A DNA stretch of 64,000 nucleotides from the IMG/VR virus record IMGVR_UViG_3300031998_000010; one strand, written 5' to 3'. A program made the position numbers and the translations under genes. Under the pieces are notes generated by a model, which was given only the letters and a program-made list of their open reading frames with translations, did no database searches and was not told the DNA's origin. Origin of the DNA: a virus. Its lineage: Duplodnaviria; Caudoviricetes. The stretch's first letter is position 1, and each line of letters begins with the position of its first letter. Shown here piece after piece: positions 42,287 to 63,962 of the stretch.

Positions 42287-42649
42287 TCACTCATAATCTG
42301 CTTCAATAAGTTCGTCTAAACGATTTTGAGCATCTACGTCAGTATGCCAATCTTGATAAGAACCAACATAGTAGAAACCATCTGCTACTTCTACTGCTTC
42401 GTTGTTGTGACACATTCCCTCAAGGGCACCTAATACTGTATACAAATCAAATTCTTCTTGTCCTTCGTCGCATTCAGGGCATTCTTGTTTAAGTAATTCA
42501 GCTACACTAGCAAGACTGAATTCTTCTCCTGCGTCACAATGTGAAACTCTTTTTGAAATAACCCAACCATCGCATAAATCAGCAATGAATCTTCCGAAAA
42601 GGTCTCTTTCGTCTTTTCCAAAATACCAATGGTCAAAGAATGATGTCAT
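42287..42649 (-). CDS. Hypothetical acidic protein
   Basis: 120-aa ORF with ATGA coupling. Confidence 0.6.
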   Translation of the reverse strand: MTSFFDHWYFGKDERDLFGRFIADLCDGWVISKRVSHCDAGEEFSLASVAELLKQECPECDEGQEEFDLYTVLGALEGMCHNNEAVEVADGFYYVGSYQDWHTDVDAQNRLDELIEADYE

Positions 42650-42840
42650 ATTTTAGCTACCTTTAATTCCTTCCTTTCAAAAATCAAATCTGGTTCCCCT
42701 CCGGCTATTCCTACATGATAGTACTCACCGTCATAATAGTTAACGATTCCCCATTCACCATCTGCCCAACTGCCAGGAGATTTTATAAATACTTTTGTAC
42801 CTAAGGGAATTTCTTTTGCTGATTTTATGTATACTTTCAT
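42646..42840 (-). CDS. Small SH3-like protein with MKVYIKSA leader
   Basis: Leader motif; GTKVFI...WGIV...YHV beta pattern. Confidence 0.6.
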   Translation of the reverse strand: MKVYIKSAKEIPLGTKVFIKSPGSWADGEWGIVNYYDGEYYHVGIAGGEPDLIFERKELKVAKI

Positions 42841-42845
42841 TTTAA

Positions 42846-43085
42846 TTATCTCTCTACTTCTGTGATGCTTAAGATTCTATCTATGTCATCTCTTCTATTT
42901 AACTGGGATTGAGCGAATCTATAAGCTGATTCAAAGTTAGGAGCAGTAATTCTGCTTGTTTTAATATATCCATTTACAAGTATGAATTGAATCCTATACC
43001 AAAATTCAGATTCTTCTGCATATTCATATAATTCGCTATCGGGAATATCTCTTTCTAAGATTTCGCTTGGGTTATACTTTGACAT
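42846..43085 (-). CDS. Hypothetical protein
   Basis: 79-aa ORF within the operon. Confidence 0.5.
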   Translation of the reverse strand: MSKYNPSEILERDIPDSELYEYAEESEFWYRIQFILVNGYIKTSRITAPNFESAYRFAQSQLNRRDDIDRILSITEVER

Positions 43086-43189
43086 GAATCATTCTCGCTT
43101 TCTTCTTGTTCGTCAATTACAAAATTTAACCAATACTCAAGTTCGGCTTCAGTCATTGTTGTCTTCCTCTCTTTAGTTAACGATTCAAT

Positions 43190-43228
43190 AAAAAATAAGG
43201 GCAGACAACTTTCGTCATCTGCCCTTAG
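43190..43228 (-). terminator. Intrinsic terminator after the sheath gene
   Basis: TAAGGGCAGA...TCTGCCCTTA hairpin with GAAA loop, followed by TTTTTT. Confidence 0.85.
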
Positions 43229-43243
43229 ATGTTATAAAAAGAC

Positions 43244-45475
43244 TCAGGAGGTCAAAGCAGCTGACTGAGGAAGTGCAATGAGGTCAATTGTGATATCTTC
43301 AATTACACCGGCTGTCCTGATTACAATCTTACCAATTACTGAATTTGCATTGACTGAATCAAGTCCGTTGATGTCTGCTGACATTGTTACAGAATAGCCA
43401 GGGTCATCAAGGTCGGTTCTACCAGGTACGTCTGCACCCTTTACAAGTGCACCGAGGTTAGACATTGTATCAAGAATCGGTGTAACTCCTGCATAGAATC
43501 TATCATATGCATTAGCATTGCTGTACTGATATGTGATTCCAATACCTACTCTATAAACTACATCCTGAATTGCATTGAAGATGTATCTTGTAGAAAGGTT
43601 AGCAAGAGCCTGATATGTTGCCGGAGGAACTTCAAATAATGTTGAGTTACCCCAAATACCAGCACCAATTTCAGGAAGGTTTGTGATAACATTAAGTCTG
43701 CAACCTTCGCTTGACTGCCACTTCATTAACAAATCTTCAGGTACTGTGTAATCAAGCTTGCTAAGCTTGAAGTTTGTACTTCTGATTGTAGGAAGTGCCC
43801 ATTCATACTGGTTAGCCTGATTAAGAATCATTGCTCTTGTAATCATGAGAGCTAAGAAGGAAGGTGACGCAGGAGCTTGTCTGCTTGTACCAGCATAAGT
43901 ATACTGACCCCAAGGAGCAAACAATGCTGAAGAAGAAGTAAATAATCCTGTCTGGTTAACAGACTCGGCAGGAATATATCTGCATAACTTCTGTACATAA
44001 CCTTCTTCAAATTCCTTTGTAGAATCATTCCAAACGCCATCACGAGACAAACTCTTAGGAATATCAAGAAGTGCTGTTGCACATCTGCTGTTGTATGCTA
44101 CATCCATGAGTTTGACATGCATCGGAGATAATGTACCGAAATGAGCCTTCGGGTCAGATACTCCAAGCTCGTAGAAGTTTTGGTCATCCCAAGGTGAGAT
44201 AATTCTATTCGGGTTATATGTGAGCTTATCCTTAAGGAGGTCAAGTACCTTAGTTGCATATGTGAATGTCCACTCTCTAAATCTGATTGCATATGCGACA
44301 TTCATATCTGTTGTAGCATAATGTGCAGGAACAGCAGAAGCATCTTCAATAGCCTTAAGATATTCTACTTTATTAAGGTCTTCTTCCTTGACTGAAAGCA
44401 AGAATCTATCAGAAGCAAGAGCCTTAGCAGCAGTAAGTACTGTCTGATAAGTGTCTCCGCTATCTTGAGCGGCTGTATCAGAACCATTTGCTAATCTGAT
44501 TGTAGGAACGTCTGAACCAAACTGAGCATCACCAGCTAAATCGCTATCCTCTGTAAGACCATCATAGTTAGTAAATGTGATGAAATTGGATTCAACCTCG
44601 CTAATATGAAGTACATTATCTGTAGCATTGTCTACGTCAAATACGAATACTAAGTTCTCAAGCGAAGTTCTTACATTAGTAGAATCTACTGCATATACAA
44701 TAGCATTCCAATATGTCATTCCGCTTGAAGTAACCTTTCTAAGTGTTACTATGATGTTGTTACCAAATGTACCAGCATATTTTGCCTTGATGTTGAGTGT
44801 ATCACCGCCATCAGTCTTCTTATAATAAGTATTCTGAGCAAAAGCAGGTGCAACTGTTTCTGTACCATCTTTGATATAGTAGTCTGTATAATTAGTTGCC
44901 CAATCATCCGGCTGAGATGATAAGAGAACATATTCATTATCTTCTAACTTATAATAAGTATCTACGGCAAATTCAGGAGCACTTTCTCCTGTAACATTTA
45001 CATACTTGTCCTGAACTACACCTTGAACAGGAGCATAATTATCTCCACTCTTTGTGTAGTAGTTAGCATAATCAGTTGCCCAATCTGCAGGTGCTGATGT
45101 AAGGAGTTCGTATACATTCTCTTCTACAAACTCACCGGAAGACCTTGTACCAGGGCATAATCTGCAAACAAGTACATCATATCCATTTGTAATAAGTGAA
45201 AGGGCAATATAATATGAATAATCTTTTGCCCTTCTGTAATTGGCAGCAGGTCCTCTAAATGTTGAAACGAAACTCTGCAAGCCGGTTTGTGTAGCATTAA
45301 ACCTACTCCAAACTGTATCTTCTAATGCAAGTTTCAAATCCTTACCTGTGGTAGTCGGGTCCTCAAAAGCAGGGCCCCAAGATGCCGTGATAGGAAGTGC
45401 GACTGTAGCATAATTAGAATTTACAACATTAATCGAATAATTATTTGAAATCGGATTAATTGTTATCTTTGCCAT
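43244..45475 (-). CDS. Tail sheath protein
   Basis: Start MAKITIN with GGAGGAG RBS; WGP, AKYAGTFGN, ALLDIP, IWGNSTL and LSTR motifs typical of contractile sheaths. Confidence 0.85.
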   Translation of the reverse strand: MAKITINPISNNYSINVVNSNYATVALPITASWGPAFEDPTTTGKDLKLALEDTVWSRFNATQTGLQSFVSTFRGPAANYRRAKDYSYYIALSLITNGYDVLVCRLCPGTRSSGEFVEENVYELLTSAPADWATDYANYYTKSGDNYAPVQGVVQDKYVNVTGESAPEFAVDTYYKLEDNEYVLLSSQPDDWATNYTDYYIKDGTETVAPAFAQNTYYKKTDGGDTLNIKAKYAGTFGNNIIVTLRKVTSSGMTYWNAIVYAVDSTNVRTSLENLVFVFDVDNATDNVLHISEVESNFITFTNYDGLTEDSDLAGDAQFGSDVPTIRLANGSDTAAQDSGDTYQTVLTAAKALASDRFLLSVKEEDLNKVEYLKAIEDASAVPAHYATTDMNVAYAIRFREWTFTYATKVLDLLKDKLTYNPNRIISPWDDQNFYELGVSDPKAHFGTLSPMHVKLMDVAYNSRCATALLDIPKSLSRDGVWNDSTKEFEEGYVQKLCRYIPAESVNQTGLFTSSSALFAPWGQYTYAGTSRQAPASPSFLALMITRAMILNQANQYEWALPTIRSTNFKLSKLDYTVPEDLLMKWQSSEGCRLNVITNLPEIGAGIWGNSTLFEVPPATYQALANLSTRYIFNAIQDVVYRVGIGITYQYSNANAYDRFYAGVTPILDTMSNLGALVKGADVPGRTDLDDPGYSVTMSADINGLDSVNANSVIGKIVIRTAGVIEDITIDLIALPQSAALTS

Positions 45476-45755: not shown

Positions 45756-45777
45756 ATTTCTACCTCATTTATATCAT

Positions 45778-46767
45778 TTAAGGTTGTACCTCATTAAGAG
45801 AAGGCTCAGCAGTAGCTCTCAAATCGTCTGTAGTCTGATATTCAATAGGTTCTATCGGCTTAATATAAATCTTTTTCATCTTATATGTTCTACGTTCTGC
45901 AGTATTGACTGTACCTGCCGGAAATGATGTTGAATCACCTGAGAGCCAATGGAAGGTGTAGAATTTAGGTGTGACAGAATCAACCTTAATCCAGCCCTTG
46001 CCGTCAACACCTGGATTTGTTGAATAACTAGAATATCGGTCATAAGAATCCTCTCTAACGATATTAACTTTAATCCAGATATCTTTTCCAATGATTCTTG
46101 CAATGTTGTAATTAGTTATTTGTTCATCTAATTCAGAAGTATCTAAATAACCAGGGTCTTTTGTTTTGATAAAATCTGCTTCCTTTGGCTCACCATTGTT
46201 GATTCTATCAAGAATTACTTGCCAATCAATTGTTTCAATCTTAGCAAACAGGTCATATGTCTTCTTAAGGATATCTAAGTCTTCGGACTCTAATACATTA
46301 GCCTCAATCTTAGGGATTTTCTTAAGTATCTTTGTGTGTGTCCTGTCATACTCATGTGTATCATAATTATAATTACTATCTGTTTTTGTCCATATGAAGA
46401 TTGTATATGACCAACTAATTCCTTTAATTCGACCACCATCTACATCATGTTGATAATCGCTATATGTAGATTTGGGATTAGCATGCTTACTAGAATAGTA
46501 ATACATCTTGACAAAATAATCACTTTCTTTTGTATAATTATTCTTTTCAGACATTTTTACTTTTATCTGAGCTCCAGGAATTGCTTCAAGCTCACTTGAT
46601 AAGAAAGCTTTAATGAAATTCTCCATATCTGTAGAATAATTATCACTAGCAGATTTGAACTGAGCTACCTCAGTGTCATATGCAGTTTTCTTAGCATTAT
46701 AATCATCTACATATTTTTGACGCTCTCTAATAAGACGCCCTCTTTCAGATGCAAATACAAATTTCAT
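45778..46767 (-). CDS. Leader-bearing hypothetical protein (paralogue of 49006..49866)
   Basis: MKFVFAS leader; shared WSY, DPGY, TPKFY and PIE..T..L motifs. Confidence 0.65.
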   Translation of the reverse strand: MKFVFASERGRLIRERQKYVDDYNAKKTAYDTEVAQFKSASDNYSTDMENFIKAFLSSELEAIPGAQIKVKMSEKNNYTKESDYFVKMYYYSSKHANPKSTYSDYQHDVDGGRIKGISWSYTIFIWTKTDSNYNYDTHEYDRTHTKILKKIPKIEANVLESEDLDILKKTYDLFAKIETIDWQVILDRINNGEPKEADFIKTKDPGYLDTSELDEQITNYNIARIIGKDIWIKVNIVREDSYDRYSSYSTNPGVDGKGWIKVDSVTPKFYTFHWLSGDSTSFPAGTVNTAERRTYKMKKIYIKPIEPIEYQTTDDLRATAEPSLNEVQP

Positions 46768-46768
46768 A

Positions 46769-47041
46769 TCAAAGTCCCTCGTAATCTAAGATTTGAGTTA
46801 TTTCGTCATCGCTATATCCTAATTCAAGAAGCTTACTACATATCAAGTCTAAAGCTTCGTCATCATTAGATGCTACTGAAAATGCTTCATCTTTGATAGC
46901 ATCAAACTTAAGTAATTCATCTTCGTTGAATAATTCGCTTGAGCAGACTGTAGTAGAACTTGTTACTACTTCATCTTGCTCTAAATCTTCAATTCTGTTT
47001 TCAAGAGCATCTAAAAAGTCTTGGATGTTATTCCACTTCAT
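46769..47041 (-). CDS. Small acidic protein
   Basis: Start MKWNNI after a GGGAGG RBS; DFLDALE...EVVTSSTTVCSS. Confidence 0.6.
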   Translation of the reverse strand: MKWNNIQDFLDALENRIEDLEQDEVVTSSTTVCSSELFNEDELLKFDAIKDEAFSVASNDDEALDLICSKLLELGYSDDEITQILDYEGL

Positions 47042-48740
47042 ATCGAGTACCATCCTCCCTGATTTCAATCGGGATATATCCCTTGTTTACACTGATTAAT
47101 TCTTTGCAATCTTTGCTACAGATAATCAATTTTACATTTTCAAATTCATAAGGTTCATCTGCCTTATCCCATTCAATTGTTAAGTTAGGACAATTATCAA
47201 ATACGCTGAGGCCTAATTCTGTAGAATCTGTAACTGTTACAAGTCCGTCCATATCATTATCTGCAAAAGCATAAGAACCTACTTTAACACCGTCAGGATT
47301 GAACTCTACAACCTGTAAATTGGGGCAATCACGGAATGCGCTGCCTCCAATATAAGTAAGTTTTGAGATGTCAATATAACTGATATTAGACTTGTAGAAT
47401 GCACTTGAGTTTACTTTTGTAACATTGTTTAATTCAATTCCGTTTATAGACTCACTCTTAAATGCTGCAGAAATGATTTCTGTTGTGCTATCAGGCATCT
47501 GTATGGGGTCTAGTTCTTTACAGCCATCGAAAACGTACTTTCCAATATATTTTACACTATTAGGAAGTTGAGATTTTAACTTCGTGCAATCCTGGAAGCA
47601 CCCTTCTCTTACAACAATAAGATTTTCACTATGATTAATAATAGTAAGTGAAGTGCATCCCTTGAAGGCTCTTTCATCATACATTCTAACTGAATTAGGA
47701 ATTGTGATTTCCTCTAATGCTACACATCCACTAAAGAAGCCATTTGGAAGTTCTGTCATTGTTTCAGGCAATCTGACAGTCTTTAAATTAGGCATATCAT
47801 TCAAACGTGTGCGATACCATCCATCATTTGAAATTTTGACACTATCAGGAATGTATAGAGATTCAATATCTCTAGGAATTTGCATATTACCCCATTTGAA
47901 ATCATCAGGTAAAGTGATTTCTTTGATACCAGGTACAAATCCTAAGCACTTTTGTCCCATGTATAAGATTCCACCACGCTCTTCAATGCCAAAGTATTGC
48001 TTGATAGCAGGATGAGCTTCACAGAATTCTAAGAACTTGTCCTGACCTAAGCTCCTATCTTGCTTATCAAACCACCAGTCCCCAGATGCAGGACATGATT
48101 GAAATTTATTGATAGGGTCATTTCTGTTGATAAAGATATAAAGAGGTCCTTGTCTTGTATATCTGTTATAATATCCTTCATTTGCTGCTGTGCACCATCT
48201 TGCTTTCAAATTGTTATCGTCAGCTTCAGGATACTTATAAGGTTTAGTCTTATCACATCCAACTTCTGCTAATGCTATAGAACCAGCAAAAGTTTTAGGT
48301 GTATATAACTCCCAATCTCCATCAGATGCAAGAAACTCAATTTCACCATTAGAATCATCTACTAATGCTTGTTTTACTTTCTTATGGGTTTCACGCTCCT
48401 TCTGTCGCTTTGAAAGAGGAGTAGGATTATTAAGTGCTATATGATATGCATCTATAAATTCATCTACTGTCTTATACTGATTCAAATCCGGCTTAGGAAA
48501 TGCTTTTCTGTCTTTCTCGAGCAAGAGTAAAGCATCAGTAATATCATGATAGATATCAGGATTAGTGAGATTGCCTAACTTATTCTGCTTAAAAATCCAT
48601 GGCATAAACTTACCACGCTTCTTACTGGCATAATTAGCAGTAGGGTCAACATCAACTAATTGGGCGAAATCGTGTTCCTCCATGTCAGGATACTGTTTCC
48701 TTAAATCTTCAATAGAAACAGCTTGGATATATACTTTCAT
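47028..48740 (-). CDS. BspA-type leucine-rich-repeat protein with leader and N-terminal WCTA domain
   Basis: Repeated LP.S...I...AF.GC..L units; MKVYIQA leader. Confidence 0.8.
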   Translation of the reverse strand: MKVYIQAVSIEDLRKQYPDMEEHDFAQLVDVDPTANYASKKRGKFMPWIFKQNKLGNLTNPDIYHDITDALLLLEKDRKAFPKPDLNQYKTVDEFIDAYHIALNNPTPLSKRQKERETHKKVKQALVDDSNGEIEFLASDGDWELYTPKTFAGSIALAEVGCDKTKPYKYPEADDNNLKARWCTAANEGYYNRYTRQGPLYIFINRNDPINKFQSCPASGDWWFDKQDRSLGQDKFLEFCEAHPAIKQYFGIEERGGILYMGQKCLGFVPGIKEITLPDDFKWGNMQIPRDIESLYIPDSVKISNDGWYRTRLNDMPNLKTVRLPETMTELPNGFFSGCVALEEITIPNSVRMYDERAFKGCTSLTIINHSENLIVVREGCFQDCTKLKSQLPNSVKYIGKYVFDGCKELDPIQMPDSTTEIISAAFKSESINGIELNNVTKVNSSAFYKSNISYIDISKLTYIGGSAFRDCPNLQVVEFNPDGVKVGSYAFADNDMDGLVTVTDSTELGLSVFDNCPNLTIEWDKADEPYEFENVKLIICSKDCKELISVNKGYIPIEIREDGTRYEVE

Positions 48741-50309: not shown

Positions 50310-50849
50310 TTACTGTGGAATGTATTCTTCTATTTCCCCTTCGTAATCAAGGAATTCTTTTCTATTATTTGGAACTGTCCTGATTTCTTTATAAGGAATT
50401 GGCCATTTAGAAATCTTTTTAATATTTAAGGATTTGATTTTCAATTCTGAAATAGTTTCAGATTTGTTTAATCTTGTATTCAATTCTAATAACGAATCCT
50501 CTTTGTCAATTAATTCTGCAATATCTTGAATATTGAATACAAATGCCCTTTTATGAGATTGAAATAATACTATCACAAATCCATAAACTCCGGGAATTTG
50601 AGATTTCAACATCAACCCATCTCTTTGTTTATTTGTAAGACAGCTAAAAGGAATATTATCATTATATGTGCATTTTGACTCTATGTAATACTTATATGGA
50701 TACTTGTATAATTCAAAATCACAAATATTTGACGAACCATACATGCCGGTAACTTGGTCAGGAATTCTGTCAAAACTATAACCATCGTCAGGACGATGTA
50801 ACCATTCCTTTATTTTACCTTCGGCTTTCTTTCCGTGTTCGTTATCCAT
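50310..50849 (-). CDS. RecU-like Holliday junction resolvase (PD-(D/E)XK)
   Basis: GKKAE, RIPD, ICDF, YIESK and IPFSCL..KQ motifs; probable start MDNEHG. Confidence 0.7.
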   Translation of the reverse strand: MDNEHGKKAEGKIKEWLHRPDDGYSFDRIPDQVTGMYGSSNICDFELYKYPYKYYIESKCTYNDNIPFSCLTNKQRDGLMLKSQIPGVYGFVIVLFQSHKRAFVFNIQDIAELIDKEDSLLELNTRLNKSETISELKIKSLNIKKISKWPIPYKEIRTVPNNRKEFLDYEGEIEEYIPQ

Positions 50850-51198
50850 TATCAATAGCTTCTCGCAACTGTGCAGTAGTATAGCTTTCAACAGGCTCAA
50901 CAACTTGAACACAATCTTTCAATGCTGTTACTTCATGACTGAGTGCCTTATCAATAGATACTTCATGGTCTACTATGTATGATAAAACGCTATCATAATT
51001 ATTTTTATAGTTAAAATCTAAAGGAATGATATTGCACCAAACACTTCCGCGAATCCTATTAATCTTAATGAGTGCTCGCTGTATAACTTTACCAGAATAA
51101 AAATTGATGTTATTAACAAGAACCCATTCATCTTTTCCAACGAAAGATTTAAGTAATTCAAGATTAGATTTCTTTGATGCTTTTACATATAATTTCAT
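50842..51198 (-). CDS. Leader-bearing hypothetical protein
   Basis: MKLYVKAS leader; GKD.W and PVE.YT motifs shared with the C-terminus of 45778..46767. Confidence 0.6.
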   Translation of the reverse strand: MKLYVKASKKSNLELLKSFVGKDEWVLVNNINFYSGKVIQRALIKINRIRGSVWCNIIPLDFNYKNNYDSVLSYIVDHEVSIDKALSHEVTALKDCVQVVEPVESYTTAQLREAIDNG

Positions 51199-51202: not shown

Positions 51203-51817
51203 TCACCTCAAAGACCTAACATATGCAAGATAACTTTCTGCGTCATAGTCAGTCATATCTTCTACTCCGGCATCAGGTCCATAGGTTGCATAAAGGTCTG
51301 CACCATTCTGAAGCATTGCTTCTTCTGACCAATCATAACCGTCAGTGTAGTTAATATTTACATATTCAAGAATTTCATTAAACCACCAATCATTATCATC
51401 AGATAATGTTATCTTTGCCTTGGAAGTAATTCCACCATAAGTGCTATATACAAAAGCTTCGATAGCATCGATGGGATTATCCATATCTTCTACAACATCA
51501 TTATATGAACTTTCATTAAATTCATCAGCGATTAATTGTATTACTTCTCCATACCAATAGGGAAAGATATTTTTACCATACAAATATTTATCTATGAATT
51601 CATCTAAATCATAATTAGCTTCATGCTTAGCCTTAAGTCGATATACTCCAGTCGATTCTCCGATAATAGATAATACTTCATCAAATGTTAAAAATTGACC
51701 ATTCTTGCAGTCAAACCAAAGATTTTCTCTTACTTCTTCTTGGTCCCACTTATAAGCGATATCAAAATCAGGATGAAGATATTGAGATGCATCTATTTTA
51801 GATTTCTTTCTTTTCAT
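51203..51817 (-). CDS. Acidic hypothetical protein
   Basis: MKRKKSKIDAS leader variant. Confidence 0.6.
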   Translation of the reverse strand: MKRKKSKIDASQYLHPDFDIAYKWDQEEVRENLWFDCKNGQFLTFDEVLSIIGESTGVYRLKAKHEANYDLDEFIDKYLYGKNIFPYWYGEVIQLIADEFNESSYNDVVEDMDNPIDAIEAFVYSTYGGITSKAKITLSDDNDWWFNEILEYVNINYTDGYDWSEEAMLQNGADLYATYGPDAGVEDMTDYDAESYLAYVRSLR

Positions 51818-51868: not shown

Positions 51869-52444
51869 TTAAACTTCTCTAATTAACCAACAATCATCAG
51901 TATCATGCGGGCCAATTTGATATTCTATTCCGTCTATCTTAACATTCCAAGAGGTCCAACTTCCTCCTCTACCTGTACCGAAGTACTTACCTCCAAGGTC
52001 TTTGAGCAAATCATCAATGAATGCAATTAATGAATCTCTATCTTCATAAACTCCTGTATACACGTGGAAGCCGTCGTCTTGAATATCATAGTCGAAATCT
52101 TCCATCTTAAGATATCGTTCAATTGACTCATTAACTCTATCAGCCTTATCTACATTATCAGCATATTTGTTGATTGTTTCTTCGATATAAGTAAGATGAT
52201 TATATAACCAATCAAGAATTAAATCTACTTTATCATCAAAGTCTACAATACCTTGCTTTTCAGCTAATTCGTCCCAAATCTTCTTAACTGCCTTAGGGTT
52301 CCAGGATTCTATATCACAAGCGTCTAACTCTTCTTGATTTTGGCATCTTGCTACTTTTCTAATATCATGCTTAGTTGCTTTTGCCCATGCTTGATACCTA
52401 GGCAATTCACTTCGTGTATAAGAACATCTGATATACTTTTTCAT
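51869..52444 (-). CDS. Leader-bearing hypothetical protein
   Basis: MKKYIRCS leader. Confidence 0.6.
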   Translation of the reverse strand: MKKYIRCSYTRSELPRYQAWAKATKHDIRKVARCQNQEELDACDIESWNPKAVKKIWDELAEKQGIVDFDDKVDLILDWLYNHLTYIEETINKYADNVDKADRVNESIERYLKMEDFDYDIQDDGFHVYTGVYEDRDSLIAFIDDLLKDLGGKYFGTGRGGSWTSWNVKIDGIEYQIGPHDTDDCWLIREV

Positions 52445-52887: not shown

Positions 52888-52905
52888 ATATAAAATAAGG
52901 TTACA

Positions 52906-53937: not shown

Positions 53938-54435
53938 TTAGAATTCATCAGAAAATCCATGCCCTATATCCCAATGGACATCTTTTTCAAACTTTGTATC
54001 TCTGGGAAGATTAAATTCATTAAGTATATATTGTTTGACTTGAGGATAATCATCTATCCAATCTCCTGTGAATACAATGAATCCTTTATCTTTGAATTCA
54101 AATACTCGACCCCTAGGAATTAGTGTGTGGTCTCCCTGAAATCTCTTATCTTTACCTCTGAAGAATTCTTTTTGCCAGATATTTTTATGAAGATGCTTAT
54201 CTGTTCTTATATCGGTATTCCATTGATTTGAATGATACCAATTCAAATCTGTTGCTAATGTACTTTTGATTCCAAATAGTTCATCTTCTTCTGGGTCATA
54301 CCAAAACATTGCAACCTCAGGGTCATCTTGATATTTGTCATTTTCAAGCATCAAATCCATAGCAGAAGAAGATTCGGAATTTCTATTCCTACGTTCTTCA
54401 TTTGCTTGGTCAGCTGATTTGATGTAAACTTTCAT
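53938..54435 (-). CDS. Leader-bearing RGRV-motif protein
   Basis: MKVYIKSA leader; PRGRV motif. Confidence 0.6.
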   Translation of the reverse strand: MKVYIKSADQANEERRNRNSESSSAMDLMLENDKYQDDPEVAMFWYDPEEDELFGIKSTLATDLNWYHSNQWNTDIRTDKHLHKNIWQKEFFRGKDKRFQGDHTLIPRGRVFEFKDKGFIVFTGDWIDDYPQVKQYILNEFNLPRDTKFEKDVHWDIGHGFSDEF

Positions 54436-54805: not shown

Positions 54806-55135
54806 TTATGTCCAAGCTGTAGCTTCATCAGCATTTATATCATCTATAGCAGATAAAATATCATCAAATAACTGGTCTGCTTCTTCAACAGTGCAATCGT
54901 CCCATTCTTCAGCTGCTATACTTTTATAATCTCTAAGAATTTCAGATTGAACAGGACCAATTGCGTAGTCGTAATCTTCATCAAGATAACGAGGGTCTGA
55001 ATATGTGGATAAAAGCTTATTTCTGCACTCCTCAACAAGATGAATCTTATCTGTTGCTACTTGATTTAAGAATTCTTGAGCCCCTCTAATCTTTTCGTAA
55101 TCAGGCCACTTATTTGATTTAATATATATCTTCAT
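54806..55135 (-). CDS. Leader-bearing acidic protein
   Basis: MKIYIKS leader. Confidence 0.6.
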   Translation of the reverse strand: MKIYIKSNKWPDYEKIRGAQEFLNQVATDKIHLVEECRNKLLSTYSDPRYLDEDYDYAIGPVQSEILRDYKSIAAEEWDDCTVEEADQLFDDILSAIDDINADEATAWT

Positions 55136-55145: not shown

Positions 55146-56159
55146 TCACCAACTCATAAAAAGTGCTGCTCCGCCATCACGAGCTAAATCATCAAACCAA
55201 TTATCTGGAGAAAATTCTGTGATTACACCATCTGTGAGATTATGAACTCTAATAAAATAACCTCTATTAGCATAATCATTAATAAGTTCATTAAGTGCAG
55301 ATACATCAGAAGTTTCTGCGGATTCTGCTAAACCTCTATATTGATTATCATAATATCCTTCAACAAGGAACTCATCACCTAATTCATCTTTTGAACAATT
55401 TACCATTGTAGCAAGATACTTTGTATCTGATGAAGCTTTGATATCTCCACAAGCTTCTACTTCATCACAAGGAGTAAATATTCCATTTTCAATGGAAGTA
55501 TTAAACCAATCTTCGAAAGAAGTGAAATCAGCTAAAGAAGAATCCCAATCTTTAAAGCTGTACCAATATTCTTTCAAATCATCATATGTGTAACTATCTC
55601 CTGTTTGAGTATCAAGATAACAATCTGAATTTGCATGTATTTTTGTTGAAGTCGTGATATCTCCACAAGCTTCTACGTCATCACGAGGGTCTTTACCTGT
55701 CTTAATGTAGTAATCAAGAATTGCTTTTGTTCCCATATTTGATGGCTTAGTCCCGCCATTGTACTTGGTCTCCCATTCTTCAATATTCTTGTATGTAAGC
55801 TTGCCTTCATTGTAAGCATCAATTACTTTACAAGAAAAATTAGAACCCCACCACTTAGGTTCTCTTGCTGACTTGACATAAGAGCTTGCTTCAACTTCAT
55901 CGCAAGGAACAACGTCTCCGTCCTTCTGGCAATAACCAATTCTGTCAAGATACCTATTTATTTCTGTCTCGGAAGGGATATCATAAGCTTTGAGTTCAGT
56001 AGTTCTTAAGAATCTATCAAGCCAGACTGCTGTATAGCCGTTGGGAAGGTCCTTTTCTTTGACAATTGCTACATCTTTAGGAATTGTACCGGGACCTAAT
56101 CCATGCTTAAAGATATACAAGTAACCATTATGTGAATCAGATTTGATATATATTTTCAT
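55146..56159 (-). CDS. Leader-bearing multi-domain protein (candidate polyprotein)
   Basis: MKIYIKS leader; three internal (C)D(E/D)VEA(S/C) linkers. Confidence 0.65.
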   Translation of the reverse strand: MKIYIKSDSHNGYLYIFKHGLGPGTIPKDVAIVKEKDLPNGYTAVWLDRFLRTTELKAYDIPSETEINRYLDRIGYCQKDGDVVPCDEVEASSYVKSAREPKWWGSNFSCKVIDAYNEGKLTYKNIEEWETKYNGGTKPSNMGTKAILDYYIKTGKDPRDDVEACGDITTSTKIHANSDCYLDTQTGDSYTYDDLKEYWYSFKDWDSSLADFTSFEDWFNTSIENGIFTPCDEVEACGDIKASSDTKYLATMVNCSKDELGDEFLVEGYYDNQYRGLAESAETSDVSALNELINDYANRGYFIRVHNLTDGVITEFSPDNWFDDLARDGGAALFMSW

Positions 56160-56195: not shown

Positions 56196-56204
56196 TATAA
56201 GGTT
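56196..56204 (-). promoter_or_regulatory. Putative phage late promoter class 2, (A)ACCTTA-AT-rich (representative copy)
   Basis: Copies at about 9135, 24418, 45778, 50222, 52895, 56196, 58890, 60112 and 61592, mostly upstream of virion or lysis genes. Confidence 0.55.
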
Positions 56205-56965
56205 TACCAAGACTGATAATGGAAGATATTTTTCTTAGGAATTAGACCTTCTTCAATAAGTTCCTCAATTGTTTCATCCCCATCAGGTTCTATATAACCT
56301 GTGATAAGTCCTTTGATGTTTATATACTGAACATTTTCATCTATTACCCAGATTCTTTCTTCTGTTTCATTTATACATGTATGCTTTGACAAATAAGTAA
56401 TTGCTTCAGGAGAAAGTGTTGCTTCATTGAGTCGGAGGCCGCCATGTTGTACTCTGTAGAGATATCGAGTTATTGCAGCTCTACCATTTCGCTTACTTAG
56501 GTTATGCCCAACCTCTAACCTATTGAGGTCATTTGCACCATCGGCATTATTAAGAATTGCCTGTTCAATTTCTTCATAGATATTTCTAGGTACTTTTATT
56601 GCAGGTCTTGATGCTATCTTAAGTATGAGGTCGCCATTATCATACTCTGCTAGATAGTTTACACGAAATGCACTACTCTTACCTTTGAATCCAATTCCGG
56701 CAGATGAATAAGGAACGATTTTGTATCTATCTGAAAGTGCTGTACCATCTAGTTGTATTCCATACACCCACTTAGCCGGATTTCTCCCTGCATGGTCTAA
56801 ACTTCTAAGTAAAGATACAAAGTTATGTTTACCTCCGCCATAGTAACCTTTCTCGGGAGTATCTGTTACCTTGATACGACCTTCTTTGACAATAGTTACT
56901 ACAACATAAGGGTCTTTAACAAGATAGTAAACTTTTCCTAAATTTTTACTTGCGTATATTTTCAT
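56204..56965 (-). CDS. Leader-bearing protein with ADP-ribosyltransferase-like motifs
   Basis: MKIYAS leader; FVSLLRS, LDG..LS.RYKI.P and ETEERI motifs. Confidence 0.4.
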   Translation of the reverse strand: MKIYASKNLGKVYYLVKDPYVVVTIVKEGRIKVTDTPEKGYYGGGKHNFVSLLRSLDHAGRNPAKWVYGIQLDGTALSDRYKIVPYSSAGIGFKGKSSAFRVNYLAEYDNGDLILKIASRPAIKVPRNIYEEIEQAILNNADGANDLNRLEVGHNLSKRNGRAAITRYLYRVQHGGLRLNEATLSPEAITYLSKHTCINETEERIWVIDENVQYINIKGLITGYIEPDGDETIEELIEEGLIPKKNIFHYQSW

Positions 56966-57378
56966 GAAATTTCCTCTCTAACTTGCATGAGTAGTTTACC
57001 TAACATGTTTTTGCCTTCACCCTTACAGACGCCCCAGAAAGTATCGCCCCAAGTATTACCTTCAATAAGTTCCTCATTTCCAGTTGCTTTAAGCTTCTGT
57101 GCAAGTTCAGGATTCTCAAACTTAGATTTAAGAATTTGATGCATTATATCTACTTTTACATCTTCCCAATCATATCTAAGGTTTATCTTTCTTCCGAATT
57201 TCTTTGCATCTTTTGCACTTGGACATACAGACATTGTGATTCTTGTATCTTTATCAAGCGACTTCATGGCCTGAAATGCGTGTTCAGCCGAAGGATAAGA
57301 TTCTCCATTGATATAAACCATACAAGAATGCATATTTGAGAGGAATTCATATTCTCCCCTGAATTTAGTGATTGCCAT
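56962..57378 (-). CDS. NADAR (YbiA-like) family protein
   Basis: FLSN, YPSAEHAFQAMK, AKKFGR, LIEGNTWGDTFWG and GKNMLGKLLM motifs. Confidence 0.9.
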   Translation of the reverse strand: MAITKFRGEYEFLSNMHSCMVYINGESYPSAEHAFQAMKSLDKDTRITMSVCPSAKDAKKFGRKINLRYDWEDVKVDIMHQILKSKFENPELAQKLKATGNEELIEGNTWGDTFWGVCKGEGKNMLGKLLMQVREEIS

Positions 57379-58839: not shown

Positions 58840-58878
58840 AAACAAGAGACCTCGAAAATATATCTCGAGGCCTCTTGC
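58840..58878 (-). terminator. Intrinsic terminator after the endolysin gene
   Basis: CAAGAGGCCTCGAG...TTCGAGGTCTCTTG hairpin followed by TTTT. Confidence 0.8.
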
Positions 58879-58908: not shown

Positions 58909-59706
58909 TTATCTTAGAAGTAAATTCCACATTTCAGCATCTACAATTCCATTCTCATCTAAACCATAATTTTCTTTGTAGCGATTAACTGCTACTTCGG
59001 TGTCATAATCGAAGTCACCATCAAGCGGAAGGTTATCTGCCCACCCGAACTCATTTAAAAGAGCTTTTAAGGTATTAACCTGACCGCCTGTTGAACCTCT
59101 GCTCAAAACATCTAACTTGATGAGGACTTCTTTCTTCTCAGGGTCAGGTTTTGGAGGCTCAGGAGTAGGTTCAGGCTCAGGAGTATCCGGTTCGTAGCCA
59201 TCATATGAAGGCCTACCGAAACCGGCTATACGACTATCACCGTAGTCATACCATTTTCTTTGAACTTGGTCTCCTGCATTTCCTTCAATTGTTGTAATAC
59301 AACCGTCGGTGTCTTCTACAATACCAACATGACCGATATTTCCATCAGACATCTTGAAGAAAATCATATCACCTTTTTCAGGGTCATCATAAAATGCTCC
59401 GGCATTCTTGAAATATCCTGCAAAGAGAGCGGCAGAAGCAGAATAATTATTGTAACCGGGCTGATACATGAAATTCTGAGCATCCCACTTTTTCTCTTCA
59501 TCATCTCTATCTTCAGGAATTGCTGCCTTCAATACGCAATAATTGCAGAAGGTTGCACACCATGCTACATTTTGTTTAGTTTGTGGTGCATAATATCCGC
59601 AATCATCAAGAACCTTTGCAAAAATAGTCCAGTTATTCGGACCTTCATGATATCCAATATTATCTTTTGCGATGTCAATTACATCTTTTGCATAAATACT
59701 ACCCAT
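58909..59706 (-). CDS. Endolysin (CHAP + peptidoglycan-binding domain)
   Basis: WCATF, GHVGIV and IEGN motifs; Pro-Glu linker; LSRGSTG...DGDF...T..AV PG-binding domain. Confidence 0.9.
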   Translation of the reverse strand: MGSIYAKDVIDIAKDNIGYHEGPNNWTIFAKVLDDCGYYAPQTKQNVAWCATFCNYCVLKAAIPEDRDDEEKKWDAQNFMYQPGYNNYSASAALFAGYFKNAGAFYDDPEKGDMIFFKMSDGNIGHVGIVEDTDGCITTIEGNAGDQVQRKWYDYGDSRIAGFGRPSYDGYEPDTPEPEPTPEPPKPDPEKKEVLIKLDVLSRGSTGGQVNTLKALLNEFGWADNLPLDGDFDYDTEVAVNRYKENYGLDENGIVDAEMWNLLLR

Positions 59707-59707
59707 A

Positions 59708-59995
59708 TCACTTATCTCCTGTAGAAGATGTCAAAGACTTAATTTGCTTGAAAATCTGATTAATACCTGTTGCGGCAAGACCTGATGTGATACCAATAGC
59801 AACAGCGTCTGCCCAATTATCTGCTGGAATGAAATTTGGGATTGTATAGAAAGTAACAAGCCCCAAAATCAGCCCAAGTGTTCCGCAGATTACAGGGATG
59901 AATGAATCAAGTTTCTCAATCTTAAAAGATTTGCAAATGAAACCTGCAAAATAGCAGATTACTACAATTGCAGGAACTGATACGAATTCTGTCAT
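59708..59995 (-). CDS. Holin
   Basis: Three hydrophobic segments; GITSGLAATGINQ motif; directly upstream of the endolysin. Confidence 0.85.
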   Translation of the reverse strand: MTEFVSVPAIVVICYFAGFICKSFKIEKLDSFIPVICGTLGLILGLVTFYTIPNFIPADNWADAVAIGITSGLAATGINQIFKQIKSLTSSTGDK

Positions 59996-60176: not shown

Positions 60177-60206
60177 CTAGACATGAACCAAAGAATGTGT
60201 TATTAT

Positions 60207-60425
60207 TTATATTCTACTTGCCCTTGTACATATCCATCTATCAGTGCCTAATTCTTTAACAGTAATTACACAAGATTTTCCATACTGCTGTTTATAATAT
60301 TCTAGCATATCGCTGCATTCAATTAAAGAAGACGCTCTACCTTTGTATAACGCAGTCTTAGTGGACTTATCTTGAAAAATCCAATAGAAGTAGTCAGAAT
60401 TAGACGAATTGATATAGAATTTCAT
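60207..60425 (-). CDS. Small leader-bearing protein
   Basis: MKFYINSS leader. Confidence 0.5.
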   Translation of the reverse strand: MKFYINSSNSDYFYWIFQDKSTKTALYKGRASSLIECSDMLEYYKQQYGKSCVITVKELGTDRWICTRASRI

Positions 60426-60623: not shown

Positions 60624-61548
60624 TCACTGAATATCTTCAGGCTTCAAATAAATTGCACGGGAAATTTCAAAGGAACATGTTACTGTTACGATGCCGCCTG
60701 TCTGGTCCATTCCACCGTTGTTTAAACTAGAAATCCAGGTTCCCGGGCACTTGATTATGTCACGAGCTTGCCCGCCAGTTCCGTCATATTTAATGAAGTA
60801 AACTTGACGCATATATTGGGAGGGAAGACCAAGGCACTCGGTGAGTGGGTCATAAACCTGCTTTCTCCATGCTCTCAATGCTTCAAGGACATTAGGTGTT
60901 GTATAACAATTCAATGTCCATGTTACGGTATTGTAAGATACTTTCTGAGGGAACTTGATGAAGCCATTACCATAATGTACTGTGATAGCTTCCTGTGTTT
61001 CCTGAATTTCTCCTACATCCTGAGTAGAAAGTGTCAATGTGTCAGAAAATTCTGCAGGGCTTGAACCATCCATATTGTAGATTCTGATTTCGAAGTTGTT
61101 CTTATATAAGGGAACATAAGAATCAACGCCTAACATATGGTTTGTACTTTGTCTTATCTACAGGTCGCAACTCTGTAATCTCTATCTTTCGATAGAAGTT
61201 GTGATTATATCTTCATCCAGAACTGGAGCCGCATTTTTCTTTCCGCATTTGCTTCGGATTCTACTCTCCCTCAAGGAGATAATCGATGGACCTTTCGCTT
61301 GCTATATTAAGTTTAGCGAAGTGGCTGCTGAAGACCAATTGTTTATAACCTTTAGGACATATCTCTATGCTTTTATTTCACCTTAGGTCATCCTGTAACT
61401 TTTTTCTGCTTTCGCTCTATCACGCTTATCTTTTCAAATTACGTTGTAGCATACAGGCTTTAAGGATTCAGAGCAGTTAACGCGGTAGCCGACACTAATT
61501 ACTTAATGTCGAGGGCACAAATCAACCCATTGCTAAAGGTGTAAACAT
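60624..61548 (-). CDS. Tail tube protein (T4 gp19-like), two exons: 61548-61525 and about 61145-60624
   Basis: NNFEIRI, ITVHYGN, W...VYDP and GTWISSL motifs. Exon 1 (MFTPLAMG) has an AAGGAG RBS; the track start at 61136 has none. Confidence 0.8.
61146..61524 (-). ncRNA. Group I intron (IA-like, no ORF) in the tail tube gene
   Basis: P1 GGGU/GCCC with U.G pair; P2 hairpin; P3 CCGCGUU/AAUGCGG; P (AACUGCUCUGAA), Q (UUCAGCAGC), R (AUCGAUUAU), S (AAGAUAUAAUC); P9 with GAAA tetraloop. Confidence 0.9.
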
Positions 61549-61649
61549 AAATTTTGCTCTCCTTTTCTTATTATAGTTTGATGTTCATATCAAAGGTTCT
61601 TTTAACCTTTATTCAAATCAAATTCACAAATTAAAATAATATTAGTACA

Positions 61650-62462
61650 ATGTTGAATCTGAGAGCTAAAACTACAATCTATAATAAATTTGGTGTTGAA
61701 AATATTCGTCAATGCGAAGAATATGTTAATATCTGCCGACCTGATAAATCATCTGAAATATATAAGAAATTTGAGGAAGTGATTAAGGACAAAATCAAAC
61801 TTGCCACAACATGGTTATCTTCTCGTGATATTGAATATACTTGGAATGAAAGAATTGATGGTCACTTGTATCGACTTTGGATTCCCGAGAAAAACTTATT
61901 ATTCGACTTTGAATTCTATCCTGTTATAAATATGAATTATAATTATATAAGAATAAATTATGATGACGATATTATATTGATTCTGGAGAGATTATACCCT
62001 CAACACATTCTTGAAACTTCAGAATTACAATTACATTATAGAGTTAGTCAGAAAGAAGTCAATAAATTCTTAAAAGAAAACGGACATGCTCCTGTATATG
62101 ATAAATCGGTGTTAAGAATGGCTTGGATAAAAGATGAAAAGATTTATCAGTGTTTCATATTGAAAGAGAATCAAATCATAGTAAATGTAACTAAGCGAGG
62201 ATATAAGATTAATCACGGAACATTTATGCTTCTTCGATACTTGAAAGAAGTTTTTGAACTTCCTGAAATCATCATTAAAGACAATTTAGACAATTCTTTT
62301 AATACAGACGCATATCCAATATGGGGTCTTAAAGTTATCAATAAATATTCAAAGAAGAAAATATGGTGGAATGGTGAACACAATAAATGGCACATATCTC
62401 AATCTGATGTTGATAAATATGTACCATTTTATTTTACTGAGAATATTACTTATTGTCGTTAG
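61650..62462 (+). CDS. Divergently transcribed endonuclease-like protein (degenerate PD-(D/E)XK homing-endonuclease type)
   Basis: KFGVEN motif; IDGHLYRLWIPEKNLLFDF resembles the YDIYIPE.NL.IE core with catalytic residues altered; only long plus-strand ORF in the window. Confidence 0.5.
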   Translation: MLNLRAKTTIYNKFGVENIRQCEEYVNICRPDKSSEIYKKFEEVIKDKIKLATTWLSSRDIEYTWNERIDGHLYRLWIPEKNLLFDFEFYPVINMNYNYIRINYDDDIILILERLYPQHILETSELQLHYRVSQKEVNKFLKENGHAPVYDKSVLRMAWIKDEKIYQCFILKENQIIVNVTKRGYKINHGTFMLLRYLKEVFELPEIIIKDNLDNSFNTDAYPIWGLKVINKYSKKKIWWNGEHNKWHISQSDVDKYVPFYFTENITYCR

Positions 62463-63078
62463 GTTTTGCCGGAGATTCAAAATATACACTTGAAGTATCA
62501 TATACTTCTCTTGTTAAGTGTCTGCTTGAGTATGACAACATAACGCAACCTTGTGTATTGAGATGGATTGTAGATTGATATAATGCACCTGTTTTAGTGT
62601 ATTCTGTGCTACTAGATTCTCTCTTTATTCCATAACCTAAATCTACTTCAATGCCAAATCTAATCTTTCTATCAGATTCGTAAGGAAGTCTAATAGTGAG
62701 ATAATACATTGATAAGTATTTGTAGAAGAGTTCACGGGCTAATTCATCTGTGTCAGCTACGTTTGTGGTCAATATTCTTATTGTGTATTGCAACCCAACT
62801 TGGAGTGATTTTTCATAGTATATGTTGTTTGTTTTATTATCAAAAGCAGCCGGAATGCCAAATTGAGCCCTTGGAAAATTCCAAAGCTCTTGAATAATCG
62901 GCATATCAGGGTCTCTTATTACAAGGATTACTGGGTATGTGATTGTATCATCTTGAATCTGTGATAATATTCCCTGATATGTTTCAGGGTCTGCTATCAC
63001 TACATTGGGATTTGCATTATCAGCATTGATAGAAGCTTTGATGTCATCAACTATTGCATTGTCGTAAAGGTATAACAT
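62446..63078 (-). CDS. Tail terminator / completion protein (gp15-like)
   Basis: Position between neck and tube genes; ITYPVI.V.R and LQYTIRI motifs. Confidence 0.5.
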   Translation of the reverse strand: MLYLYDNAIVDDIKASINADNANPNVVIADPETYQGILSQIQDDTITYPVILVIRDPDMPIIQELWNFPRAQFGIPAAFDNKTNNIYYEKSLQVGLQYTIRILTTNVADTDELARELFYKYLSMYYLTIRLPYESDRKIRFGIEVDLGYGIKRESSSTEYTKTGALYQSTIHLNTQGCVMLSYSSRHLTREVYDTSSVYFESPAKPNDNK

Positions 63079-63623
63079 TACTTATCTCCTGGTCTGTATA
63101 CACCATCAACAGCCCTGCCTCTGTAGTCTGTATCGTTCTTTAAGAAATGGCTAGAAGAATTGAAGGTTTGAGCAACTTCTTTTCTGGTTCTACCAACTAT
63201 AGGCTGACCATTAGCAATAGGAATTACTTGGCAAACAAGATGGTCTGCGGCTACCATATCATAAGTGATTTCTGTAACTCTGAATTTTCTTTCTGTCAAT
63301 TCTGAGTAGAGACCTGACATTGTGAAAATGCTATCTTTTTGAACCTTGGGCAGATTCCAACTACAATGTAATAAGAAGGGAAGATTTGCATCACCATCAA
63401 CTACCCATCCGTATCTCTTGAAAGTTTTAACTTTAGGATTTCCATCAAAGAAGATAAAAGTATCCATAGGTTCTGAATAACTATCAATTTCAGGCTCGCC
63501 TTGTTCATTTGCTTTAGCTAAGTTTGGAAACTGATATTTGACAGGTATGCCTTGCAGTGAAAGAGCTTCGTCGTACCTCTTTCTCATTAATAAAATATCA
63601 GGACCTATTAAGTGAATACTCAT
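63078..63623 (-). CDS. Neck / head-tail connector protein (gp14-like)
   Basis: GIPVKY..P, K.YGW and FRVTEI motifs; position. Confidence 0.5.
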   Translation of the reverse strand: MSIHLIGPDILLMRKRYDEALSLQGIPVKYQFPNLAKANEQGEPEIDSYSEPMDTFIFFDGNPKVKTFKRYGWVVDGDANLPFLLHCSWNLPKVQKDSIFTMSGLYSELTERKFRVTEITYDMVAADHLVCQVIPIANGQPIVGRTRKEVAQTFNSSSHFLKNDTDYRGRAVDGVYRPGDK

Positions 63624-63650
63624 ATGCTATCCGATTACTTTCTCATAAAA

Positions 63651-63962
63651 TTATGCTGATTTTACTTTAACTATTTTTGAGTTAAATCTTGGTCGTACAG
63701 TATTATCGTAAAGTGTCACTTCTCTGGTAACTGTATATGGCTTCTTTCCTACACCATAAAGAGTGAAATCTTCAGTATAGTGTTCTAACATATGGTTATC
63801 TGTTAATGGCAAATCTTTTCGATTTTCACCCACGCTTGTGTAGTTTAAAGACTTTAAACTAATTTCATCACCATCTGATAAATAAATAAAGCGACCATTT
63901 GTTCCTAAACCATCTTCTATAGTAAATTGGAATTCTTTGTTAGACCTAACATATCTTTTCAT
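63651..63962 (-). CDS. Leader-bearing hypothetical protein
   Basis: MKRYVRS leader; first 20 nt identical to those of the gene starting at 52887. Confidence 0.6.
   Translation of the reverse strand: MKRYVRSNKEFQFTIEDGLGTNGRFIYLSDGDEISLKSLNYTSVGENRKDLPLTDNHMLEHYTEDFTLYGVGKKPYTVTREVTLYDNTVRPRFNSKIVKVKSA

Follow-up and report, generated by a model that had tools for sequence, protein, structure and literature searches.

A short N-terminal tag on unrelated proteins of an uncultured tailed phage, a candidate capsid-targeting and cleavage leader of T4 type

The virus record IMGVR_UViG_3300031998_000010 of IMG/VR (Duplodnaviria; Caudoviricetes) is 175,559 bp long and is labelled G000 here. The window that was analysed is a stretch of 64,000 nucleotides covering bases 2045-66044 of this record, and positions refer to the window unless they are preceded by “genome”. 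The GC content of G000 is about 35%, and the minus strand carries nearly all of the genes. Between the genes for the tail sheath and the tail tube, and also on either side of them, lie genes whose products have unrelated bodies but begin with the same few residues, such as MKVYIKSA. This shared start is called the tag. It is probably a capsid-targeting and cleavage leader of the kind known from phage T4, adapted to a head protease that would cut after Ala or Ser, a reading that rests on sequence comparison. The initial annotation had listed 15 such N-termini. All of them are the starts of minus-strand open reading frames, and 13 of the 15 genes lie between sheath and tube, where the annotation had placed most of them. 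The tag reaches further than was first seen, to genome 72-108 kb and to 154.6 kb, and with strict and loose versions together (about 28) it is present on about one in ten proteins of G000.

The tag occurs in three forms. The long form is M-K-x-Y-[IV]-[KR(QN)]-[SAC], with S, A, T, N or D as the next residue, and the short form is M-K-I-Y-[AC]-[ST]. A few proteins carry longer basic leaders that end in V/I-x-A-S (MKITKNAKKVTAS, MKTTKTVRAS and MKRKKSKIDAS). All three forms fit the pattern aliphatic-x-small, then Ser, Thr or Ala, and MK-x-Y is constant in the long and short ones. The tag spans 5-7 residues, is followed by polar residues and has no hydrophobic stretch. On reading the sequences, no Sec, Tat or lipoprotein signal (which would need a hydrophobic core of about 7 residues or more behind a basic N-region) was seen. 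The strict motif, ^MK.Y[IV][KRQN][SAC], stands at 16 of the 269 called N-termini of G000, compared to 0.014 expected from background composition and 1.7 (maximum 7) in column shuffles of the 64 MK- starts. Inside the proteins it has no match in 54,566 residues. A scan of all start codons, independent of the gene calls, gives 20 matches on the coding strand and none on the other, and adds a gene at genome 154642 (279 amino acids (aa), MKRYIKSS). A chance origin of the tag is excluded. A literature search with the tag strings returned no paper.

At the DNA level the tag is free to vary. Its codons vary as they do genome-wide (TAT:TAC 16:5; ATC, ATT and ATA for Ile; TCA, TCT, TCG and TCC for Ser), and the three MKVYIKSA copies differ at third codon positions, as the initial annotation had claimed. 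Judging from this synonymous variation, selection on the tag acts at the level of the peptide, and an RNA-level explanation was rejected because the synonymous codons vary. Position 7, where the tag ends (21 genes), is presumed to be P1, the residue just before the cut; Ser is encoded there by TCN in 11 of 11 cases and never by AGY (examples at 42820, 53905 and 54415), while AGY makes up 31% of the Ser codons genome-wide. This is consistent with a frequent one-base interchange between Ser and Ala (TCN <-> GCN). The two MKRYVRS copies do share their first 20 nucleotides (nt), but the leader capture by recombination that had been drawn from this is weakly backed: the DNA upstream is unrelated and the chance of identical codon choices is estimated at about 1%, so that the shared stretch points to recombination only faintly.

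The bodies behind the tag are unrelated, as was first thought. Without residues 1-10, BLAST sorts the 28 tagged proteins, strict and loose, into 26 clusters. As for the body types that had been named, the leucine-rich repeat (LRR) is confirmed (Pfam LRR_5, 145.6 bits), the ART-like domain is a weak lead, and the SH3-like assignment is not significant. Pfam and PHROGs searches with the approximately 28 tagged proteins gave only LRR and helix-turn-helix (HTH) domains, PDB sequence searches with tagged proteins gave nothing, and two ESM Atlas look-ups gave no usable match or scores below the reliable range. For the small-protein family named after its GKDxWV motif, the fold search returned only non-significant SH3/Sm/PsaE-like rows. 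The AlphaFold model of the 118-aa member of this family shows residues 1-11 as a coil, at a confidence below that of the following helix.

The same picture emerges from the relatives, which were surveyed in the loci around 19 related portals and in the larger genome G001 (200,233 bp, 320 genes; portal 81% identical to that of G000). The tag is present in every relative with at least 72% portal identity, at 1-8 tagged genes per 20-kb locus, and more distant relatives have starts such as MKRVIRAS, MKKFVKSE and MKIFVRGN. In three further genomes the strict DNA pattern is found on the coding strand only, and the reversed-pattern control gives 0. In G001, 48 of the 320 genes are tagged, about 30 of these being paralogues of the GKDxWV family that all start with MKIY. 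Orthologues of tagged proteins retain the tag at 31-66% identity, while for 13 of the 28 tagged proteins of G000 the related loci yielded no homologue. The tag can also be missing from a body that elsewhere carries it: the YLYIFKHG domain of the 337-aa protein is untagged in two relatives, at loci L021 (MTGYLYILKHG) and L024 (MNRHPGVDSYLYIFKHG), with in-frame stops upstream in both. An apparently untagged MKIYAS orthologue in G001 was rejected as a further case, for its tag is preserved, with GTG as the start codon. Distant relatives have the portal gene, the neck genes, a 99-aa gene and the sheath gene in one uninterrupted row, with the sheath directly after the neck genes, and the cluster of tagged genes in the window therefore fills a variable slot. 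Taken together, these comparisons support a modular, peptide-level tag carried by unrelated proteins whose set changes fast.

In the intergenic DNA of G000, two motifs are enriched (examples at 58830-58840 and 45785); they are probably promoter elements, one early/middle and one late, as judged from the genes they precede. The early-type motif, AATCGTTA, also written (G)AATCGTTATA, lies upstream of replication genes and small early-type genes. The late-type motif, (T)AACCTT[AT], lies upstream of the portal, the small terminase, the 99-aa/sheath unit, a fibre gene and head-module genes; it also precedes several tagged genes, as had been noted. When each gene is assigned to the nearest upstream motif, with the classes being consensus guesses and terminators ignored, the late:early split is 17:7 for tagged genes and 44:172 for the others (odds ratio 9.5, Fisher p 9e-7). 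The tag is thus not equally common on early and replication genes. At 52887-52902 and at genome 154642-154660, AACCTT is found about 15 nt before the ATG with no ribosome-binding site, which suggests that these two mRNAs have very short or absent 5' leaders.

The head genes that bear on the function of the tag come from relatives. The G000 record is labelled “100% complete”; nevertheless, the genes for the protease-scaffold and the major capsid protein are missing, as none was found by Pfam S77 and Gp23 searches, motif strings or tblastn with the relatives' proteins. Synteny with G001 places both in the gap between the two ends of G000: about 16 kb of G001 (roughly 152-168 kb) holds the head genes, and the adjoining sequence matches the end of G000. 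The record is therefore incomplete, broken at its ends. An exact-match scan found no contig bridging the end. The genes for a 236-aa and a 584-aa protein near this end were considered as protease and capsid genes and rejected, the former being a neck/adaptor homologue. The 584-aa head-module protein (genome 171050-172804; L012:15491-17245) has a weak Dps/ferritin-like match in its C-terminal part (PDB E 0.012; PHROG DNA-binding protein E 9e-6). No cultured relative of G000 was found among 50,697 phage records by nucleotide and portal-protein searches, and no GenBank phage is similar to it at the DNA or portal level; cultured relatives were recovered through the capsid protein only, at 24-29% identity.

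In G001, G003 and G005, a gene for a protein of 487-497 aa is followed by a gene for a protein of 479-487 aa. The second protein matches Pfam Gp23 (64.5 bits), and the first matches Peptidase_S77 with 27.5 bits in G003 (cut-off 27) and 22.7 bits in G001. When the first 190 residues of this first protein are modelled, the best PDB match is T4 gp21 (5JBL; E 2e-5, TM-score 0.52-0.61), and the herpesvirus proteases are weak fold matches (E 0.06-0.3, TM-score 0.3-0.4). A profile of the protease domain finds nothing among PDB sequences, gp21 being reached by the fold search only. The remaining residues, about 330, are coiled-coil, and with a gp21-fold N-terminal part this makes the protein a protease-scaffold fusion. 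Alignment with gp21 gives His, Ser and Asp as putative catalytic residues. The head of the clade is thus of T4 type, with a Gp23-family capsid protein and a gp21-type protease seen in close relatives only. The scaffold's C-terminus repeats what is predicted to be the capsid protein's mature N-terminus, A-T-N-T-S-N-I ... P-x-F (L044:3600-4200 in G001; loci L048-L063), and this repeat could be a shared docking or cleavage element.

The scaffold itself carries what appear to be the cut sites. The G001 scaffold contains IKAS twice, VVAS, ISAS, IQAS, VTAS and VAAS, so that the count of [IV]xA[ST] is 7, where 0.53 would be expected (P 1.5e-6; 20,000 shuffles never gave as many). One shuffle test was applied to the scaffolds of T4 (gp22), Listeria phage LIS04 and G001, counting the E-type site [IVL]xE and the A-type site [IVL]xA[STA]. 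T4 gp22, the positive control, has 20 E-type sites against 10.1 expected and 1 A-type site against 1.7, and LIS04 has 17 against 7.7 and 2 against 2.2. In G001 the E-type sites are at 7 against 7.9 expected, and the A-type sites are at 9 against 1.6 (0 of 5,000 shuffles). Since the test recovers the known motif of T4 gp22, the motif in the G001 scaffold is a different one. All 13-17 relatives have 5-10 A-type sites per scaffold, and in all of them three positions are conserved: an invariant I/V-A-A-S/T where the protease domain ends (the protease/scaffold boundary; A167 and A168 are invariant), a site of the V-T-A-S|T type some 40 residues short of the scaffold C-terminus, and [IV]-x-[AG]-A-TNTSNI about 20 residues before the start of the capsid Gp23 domain. 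The capsid propeptide has further sites (ITAA, INAG, ITSA, VTAS and PVNAS-type), and the ATNTSNI at the scaffold C-terminus is preceded by triplets such as I-K-C and I-Q-G. Judging from these triplets, P1 may be any of Ala, Ser, Cys and Gly, which are also the residues found at the last position of the tag. The tag end, [IV]-x-[ASC], matches the motif of the scaffold, the cut motif being predicted from sequence. The cut proposed in the initial annotation, (I/V)-x-(S/A/C), thus agrees with a motif that is strongly enriched in the scaffold and conserved at the boundary, near the scaffold C-terminus and in the capsid propeptide.

The type of site also varies with the type of protease. The protease-domain profile finds 3,923 proteins at E <=0.001 among 1.84 billion cluster representatives, and 132 full-length fusions are present among the best 150 of these 3,923 matches. 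In 52 of the fusions the protease has a T-R-N-x-R (or N) segment, as in T4 gp21 and LIS04; their scaffolds have medians of 20 E-type sites and 1 A-type site, and the E-type sites are enriched (z +3.6; z >2 in 48 of 52). The other 80, which belong to the clade studied here, read N-x-N-x-L/M, with a median of 6 for both types of site (z 0.45 for the E-type; z +3.7 for the A-type, with z >2 in 67 of 80). The difference between the two types is significant for both motifs (Mann-Whitney p ~1e-20). The T4 consensus [IL]-x-E does not describe this clade: its E-type sites are unenriched, and T-R-N-x-R is replaced by N-x-N-x-L/M in 80 of 80 representatives. In this clade the gp21-type protease apparently changed its P1 specificity from Glu to small residues, a change tied to the loss of two arginines, which may have bound the P1 glutamate.

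Table 1. Tagged genes, boundary genes and neighbours in the window.
Position	Strand	Class	Length (aa)	N-terminus	Remarks
25700..37000	-	gene array	50-140 each	MRLGDLDAL..., MK[IV]V[IV]DIPDE... (recurring)	Long array; near-identical ribosome-binding regions, e.g. GATATGAGAGGTGATAAAGA
41017..42252	-	TnpB/IS605 OrfB-like			Downstream of sheath gene; Pfam OrfB_IS605 64 bits; Cas12f1-like TNB domain
42646..42840	-	tagged	64	MKVYIKSA	Downstream of sheath gene; no Pfam or PHROG family; no homologue in relatives' loci
43244..45475	-	sheath	743		Lower limit of the cluster of tagged genes; match to annotated LIS04 sheath (hhalign probability 93.4%, E 2.5e-7)
45778..46767	-	tagged, loose variant	329	MKFVFAS	No family; distant paralogue of the MNIRAS protein (BLAST E 6e-10)
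47028..48740	-	tagged	570	MKVYIQAV	BspA-type leucine-rich-repeat body; G001 orthologues start MKVYISAA and MKVYIRAA
49006..49866	-	tagged, variant	286	MNIRAS	Homologues in relatives start MKIYSSRVDDVR
50842..51198	-	tagged	118	MKLYVKAS	GKDxWV small-protein family
51203..51817	-	candidate tagged	204	MKRKKSKIDAS	I-D-A|S; longer basic leader; no homologues in relatives' loci
51869..52444	-	tagged	191	MKKYIRCS	No family
52441..52887	-	tagged	148	MKRYVRST	AACCTTA 15 nt upstream of ATG, no ribosome-binding site; orthologues 55-64% identical, starting MKLYVRTA or MKRYIRTV
52906..53925	-	tagged	339	MKVYIKSAT	G001 orthologue 47% identical, MKVYIKSAV
53938..54435	-	tagged	165	MKVYIKSAD	No homologue in relatives' loci
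54806..55135	-	tagged	109	MKIYIKSN	L021 homologue starts MKRYIKSS
55146..56159	-	tagged	337	MKIYIKSD	First body domain YLYIFKHGxGPG
56204..56965	-	tagged, short form	253	MKIYAS	Start overlaps end of NADAR gene
56962..57378	-	untagged, NADAR			Pfam, 92 bits
57598..58605	-	probably untagged, multi-HTH protein		MVKAHAS
58909..59706	-	untagged, CHAP endolysin			Pfam
59708..59995	-	untagged, holin			Pfam
60207..60425	-	tagged	72	MKFYINSS	Just downstream of tube gene
60624..61136	-	tube	170		Upper boundary of the cluster; tblastn with LIS04 tube E 1.8e-13
61650..62462	+	possible mobile insert	270		Between neck and tube genes; no Pfam family
63651..63962	-	tagged	103	MKRYVRSN	Among neck genes downstream of portal; first 20 nt in common with 52441..52887

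Two of the starts in Table 1 depart from the common forms. The starts of its homologues in relatives make MNIRAS a true variant of the tag. The MKRKKSKIDAS leader fits [IV]-x-A-S and lacks the MK-x-Y part, and as the protein has no homologues in the relatives' loci, its membership in the tagged set is uncertain. The MVKAHAS start of the multi-HTH protein was rejected as a tag: the orthologue starts with MSRAAKD, and the gene comes with an early-type motif of its own. No tag is present on the holin, endolysin, NADAR and RecU-like genes within the cluster. For the 253-aa MKIYAS protein there is only a weak ART-PolyVal/GNAT lead (ESM Atlas score 0.78-0.82, below reliable); with the adjoining NADAR gene it could form a pair of a modifying enzyme and its reversing enzyme. 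Between the neck and tube genes, the 270-aa gene is the only sizeable one of the region on the plus strand, and may be a mobile insert. The array of small genes is an early-type, fast-duplicating set that separates the tail genes from the rest.

A mechanism can be proposed by comparison with T4. The tag would be made of two overlapping parts, with the MK-x-Y head serving for targeting and the tail, [IV]-x-[A/S/C] followed by S, A or T, serving as the cut site. The tagged proteins, made mainly late, would be co-assembled into the scaffolding core of the prohead. There, a gp21-type serine protease fused to the coiled-coil scaffold, its P1 preference apparently switched from Glu to Ala, Ser, Cys and Gly in the manner of herpesvirus assemblins, would remove the 5-7 residues of the tag. 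The same enzyme would chop the scaffold at its many [IV]-x-A-S sites and remove about 85-93 residues from the capsid protein, and the trimmed proteins would remain inside the head alongside the DNA. That the tagged proteins are delivered into the host is speculation. Of the T4-like sorting signal with injected effectors that had been proposed at the outset, the sorting part fits a peptide-level, modular tag on a fast-changing set of proteins in a clade with a T4-type head. The injected effectors are an extrapolation; the tagged proteins are mostly acidic and the internal proteins of T4 are basic.

Several observations weigh against such a leader. The median isoelectric point of the tagged proteins is 5.6 in G000 and 4.9 in G001, and up to 15% of the proteome, as in G001, is a lot of head cargo. 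The complete relative G008 has the same type of protease and no strict tag. Seven tagged genes are in early-type units, by promoter classes that are themselves consensus guesses. The cut motif is short and permissive, and within the tagged bodies it is not significantly depleted, with 3 occurrences against 6.5 expected when composition is kept (P 0.10) and 12.5 at the rate of other proteins. The two protease types are also two similarity tiers of the profile search, so that the covariation is probably one evolutionary switch and not many independent ones. The protease and capsid genes are absent from G000 and the link is made through relatives, at 81% portal identity, and the nearest cultured capsid protein is 27-29% identical to that of G001. 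Some of these points would suit a tag that marks ordinary parts of the virion or prohead core (fillers, decoration, neck or tail proteins), processed by the protease and not injected, with some of them degraded or expelled. This we consider unlikely. The acidity and the clustering among tail and neck genes agree with it, as do the longer basic leaders ending in V-x-A-S on conserved head-module proteins (genome 72866-73291 and 172898-173335) and the precedent of T4 gp67, gp68 and gp22, which are cut and expelled (PMC9958956). However, a set in which 13 of 28 members lack a homologue in close relatives is hypervariable, and LRR and HTH bodies are unlike core structural parts. The tagged proteins also have one site at the tag end and few internal ones, as do the internal proteins of T4, and this fits retention rather than degradation.

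Less probable still is another N-terminal role, with the tag acting as a docking strand for a chaperone or another assembly, as a stability or degradation signal, or as a translation enhancer, and with its likeness to the scaffold motif being coincidental. Neither Tyr4 nor Lys2 belongs to the sites of scaffold and capsid, MK- and A/T-rich second codons are frequent at gene starts in general, and the early-type tagged genes and G008, with no strict tag, would be in keeping with such a role. Yet free synonymous variation around a conserved Y, I/V and S/A speaks against an RNA signal, and the lack of a hydrophobic stretch speaks against secretion. The last three residues of the tag match a protease motif that was derived independently, including A, S or C at P1, and tagged genes are enriched in late-type units. 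The capsid-targeting sequence of T4 likewise starts with MK-T-Y and ends in T4's own protease motif. It is hardly credible that the shared N-terminus was simply inherited, with the tagged proteins as divergent paralogues and the tag as the first strand of a common fold. The GKDxWV family, with its roughly 30 MKIY copies in G001, is one real family of paralogues, but even there the tag is modelled as a coil outside the fold. Of the 28 bodies, 26 have no detectable similarity; their lengths lie between 64 and 570 aa, their types include LRR and HTH among others, and the same body domain also occurs untagged. Common ancestry of the tagged proteins was thus rejected on the basis of the 26 groups, the untagged homologues and the coiled tag.

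If the tag is a leader for capsid targeting and cleavage, its range invites a wider reading. In a large clade of uncultured gut or rumen phages (about 80 protease clusters at 50% identity), a T4-type protease would have been re-tuned to herpesvirus-like Ala/Ser sites, and a minimal tag of 5-7 residues would be a general capsid-loading code used by up to 15% of the genes. We put this forward tentatively, at somewhat less than even confidence. If it is true, the head cargo of the clade would be larger as a set, and more rapidly exchanged, than any other known from a phage. Since it is present on dozens of unrelated proteins in many genomes, the tag is a natural mutational series in which the putative docking part, MK-x-Y, could be separated from the cut site. 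If the tagged proteins are delivered with the DNA, they would form a large pool of unexplored early-acting phage proteins, and a packaging tag of 7 residues would be a convenient tool for loading phage heads.

Among known systems, the nearest cultured phages are the Firmicutes phages LIS04 (genus Thornevirus), Bacillus phage vB_BceM-HSE3 and Streptococcus phage vB_SagM-GXN1, whose capsid proteins are 27-29% identical to that of G001. LIS04 also has a protease-scaffold fusion, of 559 aa, followed by a gene for a Gp23-type capsid protein. It differs in keeping the T-R-N-N-R segment and in its E-type scaffold sites, and no MK-x-Y-I-K-S tag was seen in the 41-kb stretch of its genome that was read. 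In the giant phages phiKZ and SPN3US (gp175/gp245), three reports describe how a protease related to gp21 processes many of the head and ejection proteins, cutting at a short consensus (PMC5694885, PMC7411985, PMC10052503). Their propeptides are long and dissimilar, and not a shared 7-residue tag as in this clade. The consensus sites of phiKZ and SPN3US keep Glu at P1 (S/A/G-x-E or A-x-E).

The predicted sites and the fused architecture mirror those of herpesvirus assemblins. Assemblin (pUL26) is fused to the scaffold and cuts at YLQA|T (R-site) and VQA|S (M-site) (PMC4498786). The phage sites share Ala at P1, Ser or Thr at P1' and an aliphatic residue at P3, and the Tyr of the R-site stands at P4 as in the tag, Y-[IV]-[KR]-[AS]|S. 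Both fusions have a site at the boundary (I-A-A-S here) and another near the C-terminus (V-T-A-S|T here). The phage enzyme differs in being closest, by fold and sequence, to T4 gp21 and in its predicted His, Ser and Asp instead of Ser-His-His, and so the resemblance is one of sites and architecture and not of family membership. Herpesviruses are not known to use a cleavage site as a portable loading tag.

The system that comes closest is that of T4 itself. T4 IPII and IPIII are loaded by means of a leader of about 10 residues, MKTYQEFIAE, which is cut once by gp21 and is sufficient for foreign proteins (PMC8442874; PMC9958956). The internal proteins of T-even phages are diverse and have only the capsid-targeting sequence in common (PMC3012670), and protein localisation to the scaffolding core of T4 is still called “mysterious” (PMC9958956). 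As with IPII and IPIII (and the short propeptides of IPI and Alt), the tag of this clade is a short N-terminal leader on unrelated, non-essential, fast-evolving proteins. In both systems the leader opens with MK-x-Y and closes with aliphatic-x-P1, which is the cut motif of gp21 in T4 and the predicted one of the gp21-type protease in this clade, the head is built from a Gp23-family capsid protein, and the scaffold is rich in the same motif as the leader end. The clade differs in having Ala, Ser or Cys at P1 instead of Glu, a tag of 5-7 residues instead of 10, and 25-48 tagged proteins per genome instead of a handful; its tagged proteins are mostly acidic and those of T4 are basic, and its protease is fused to the scaffold. 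If the tag is indeed a loading code, then the MK-x-Y that it shares with MKTYQEFIAE would be an ancient scaffold-docking element of T4-type heads.

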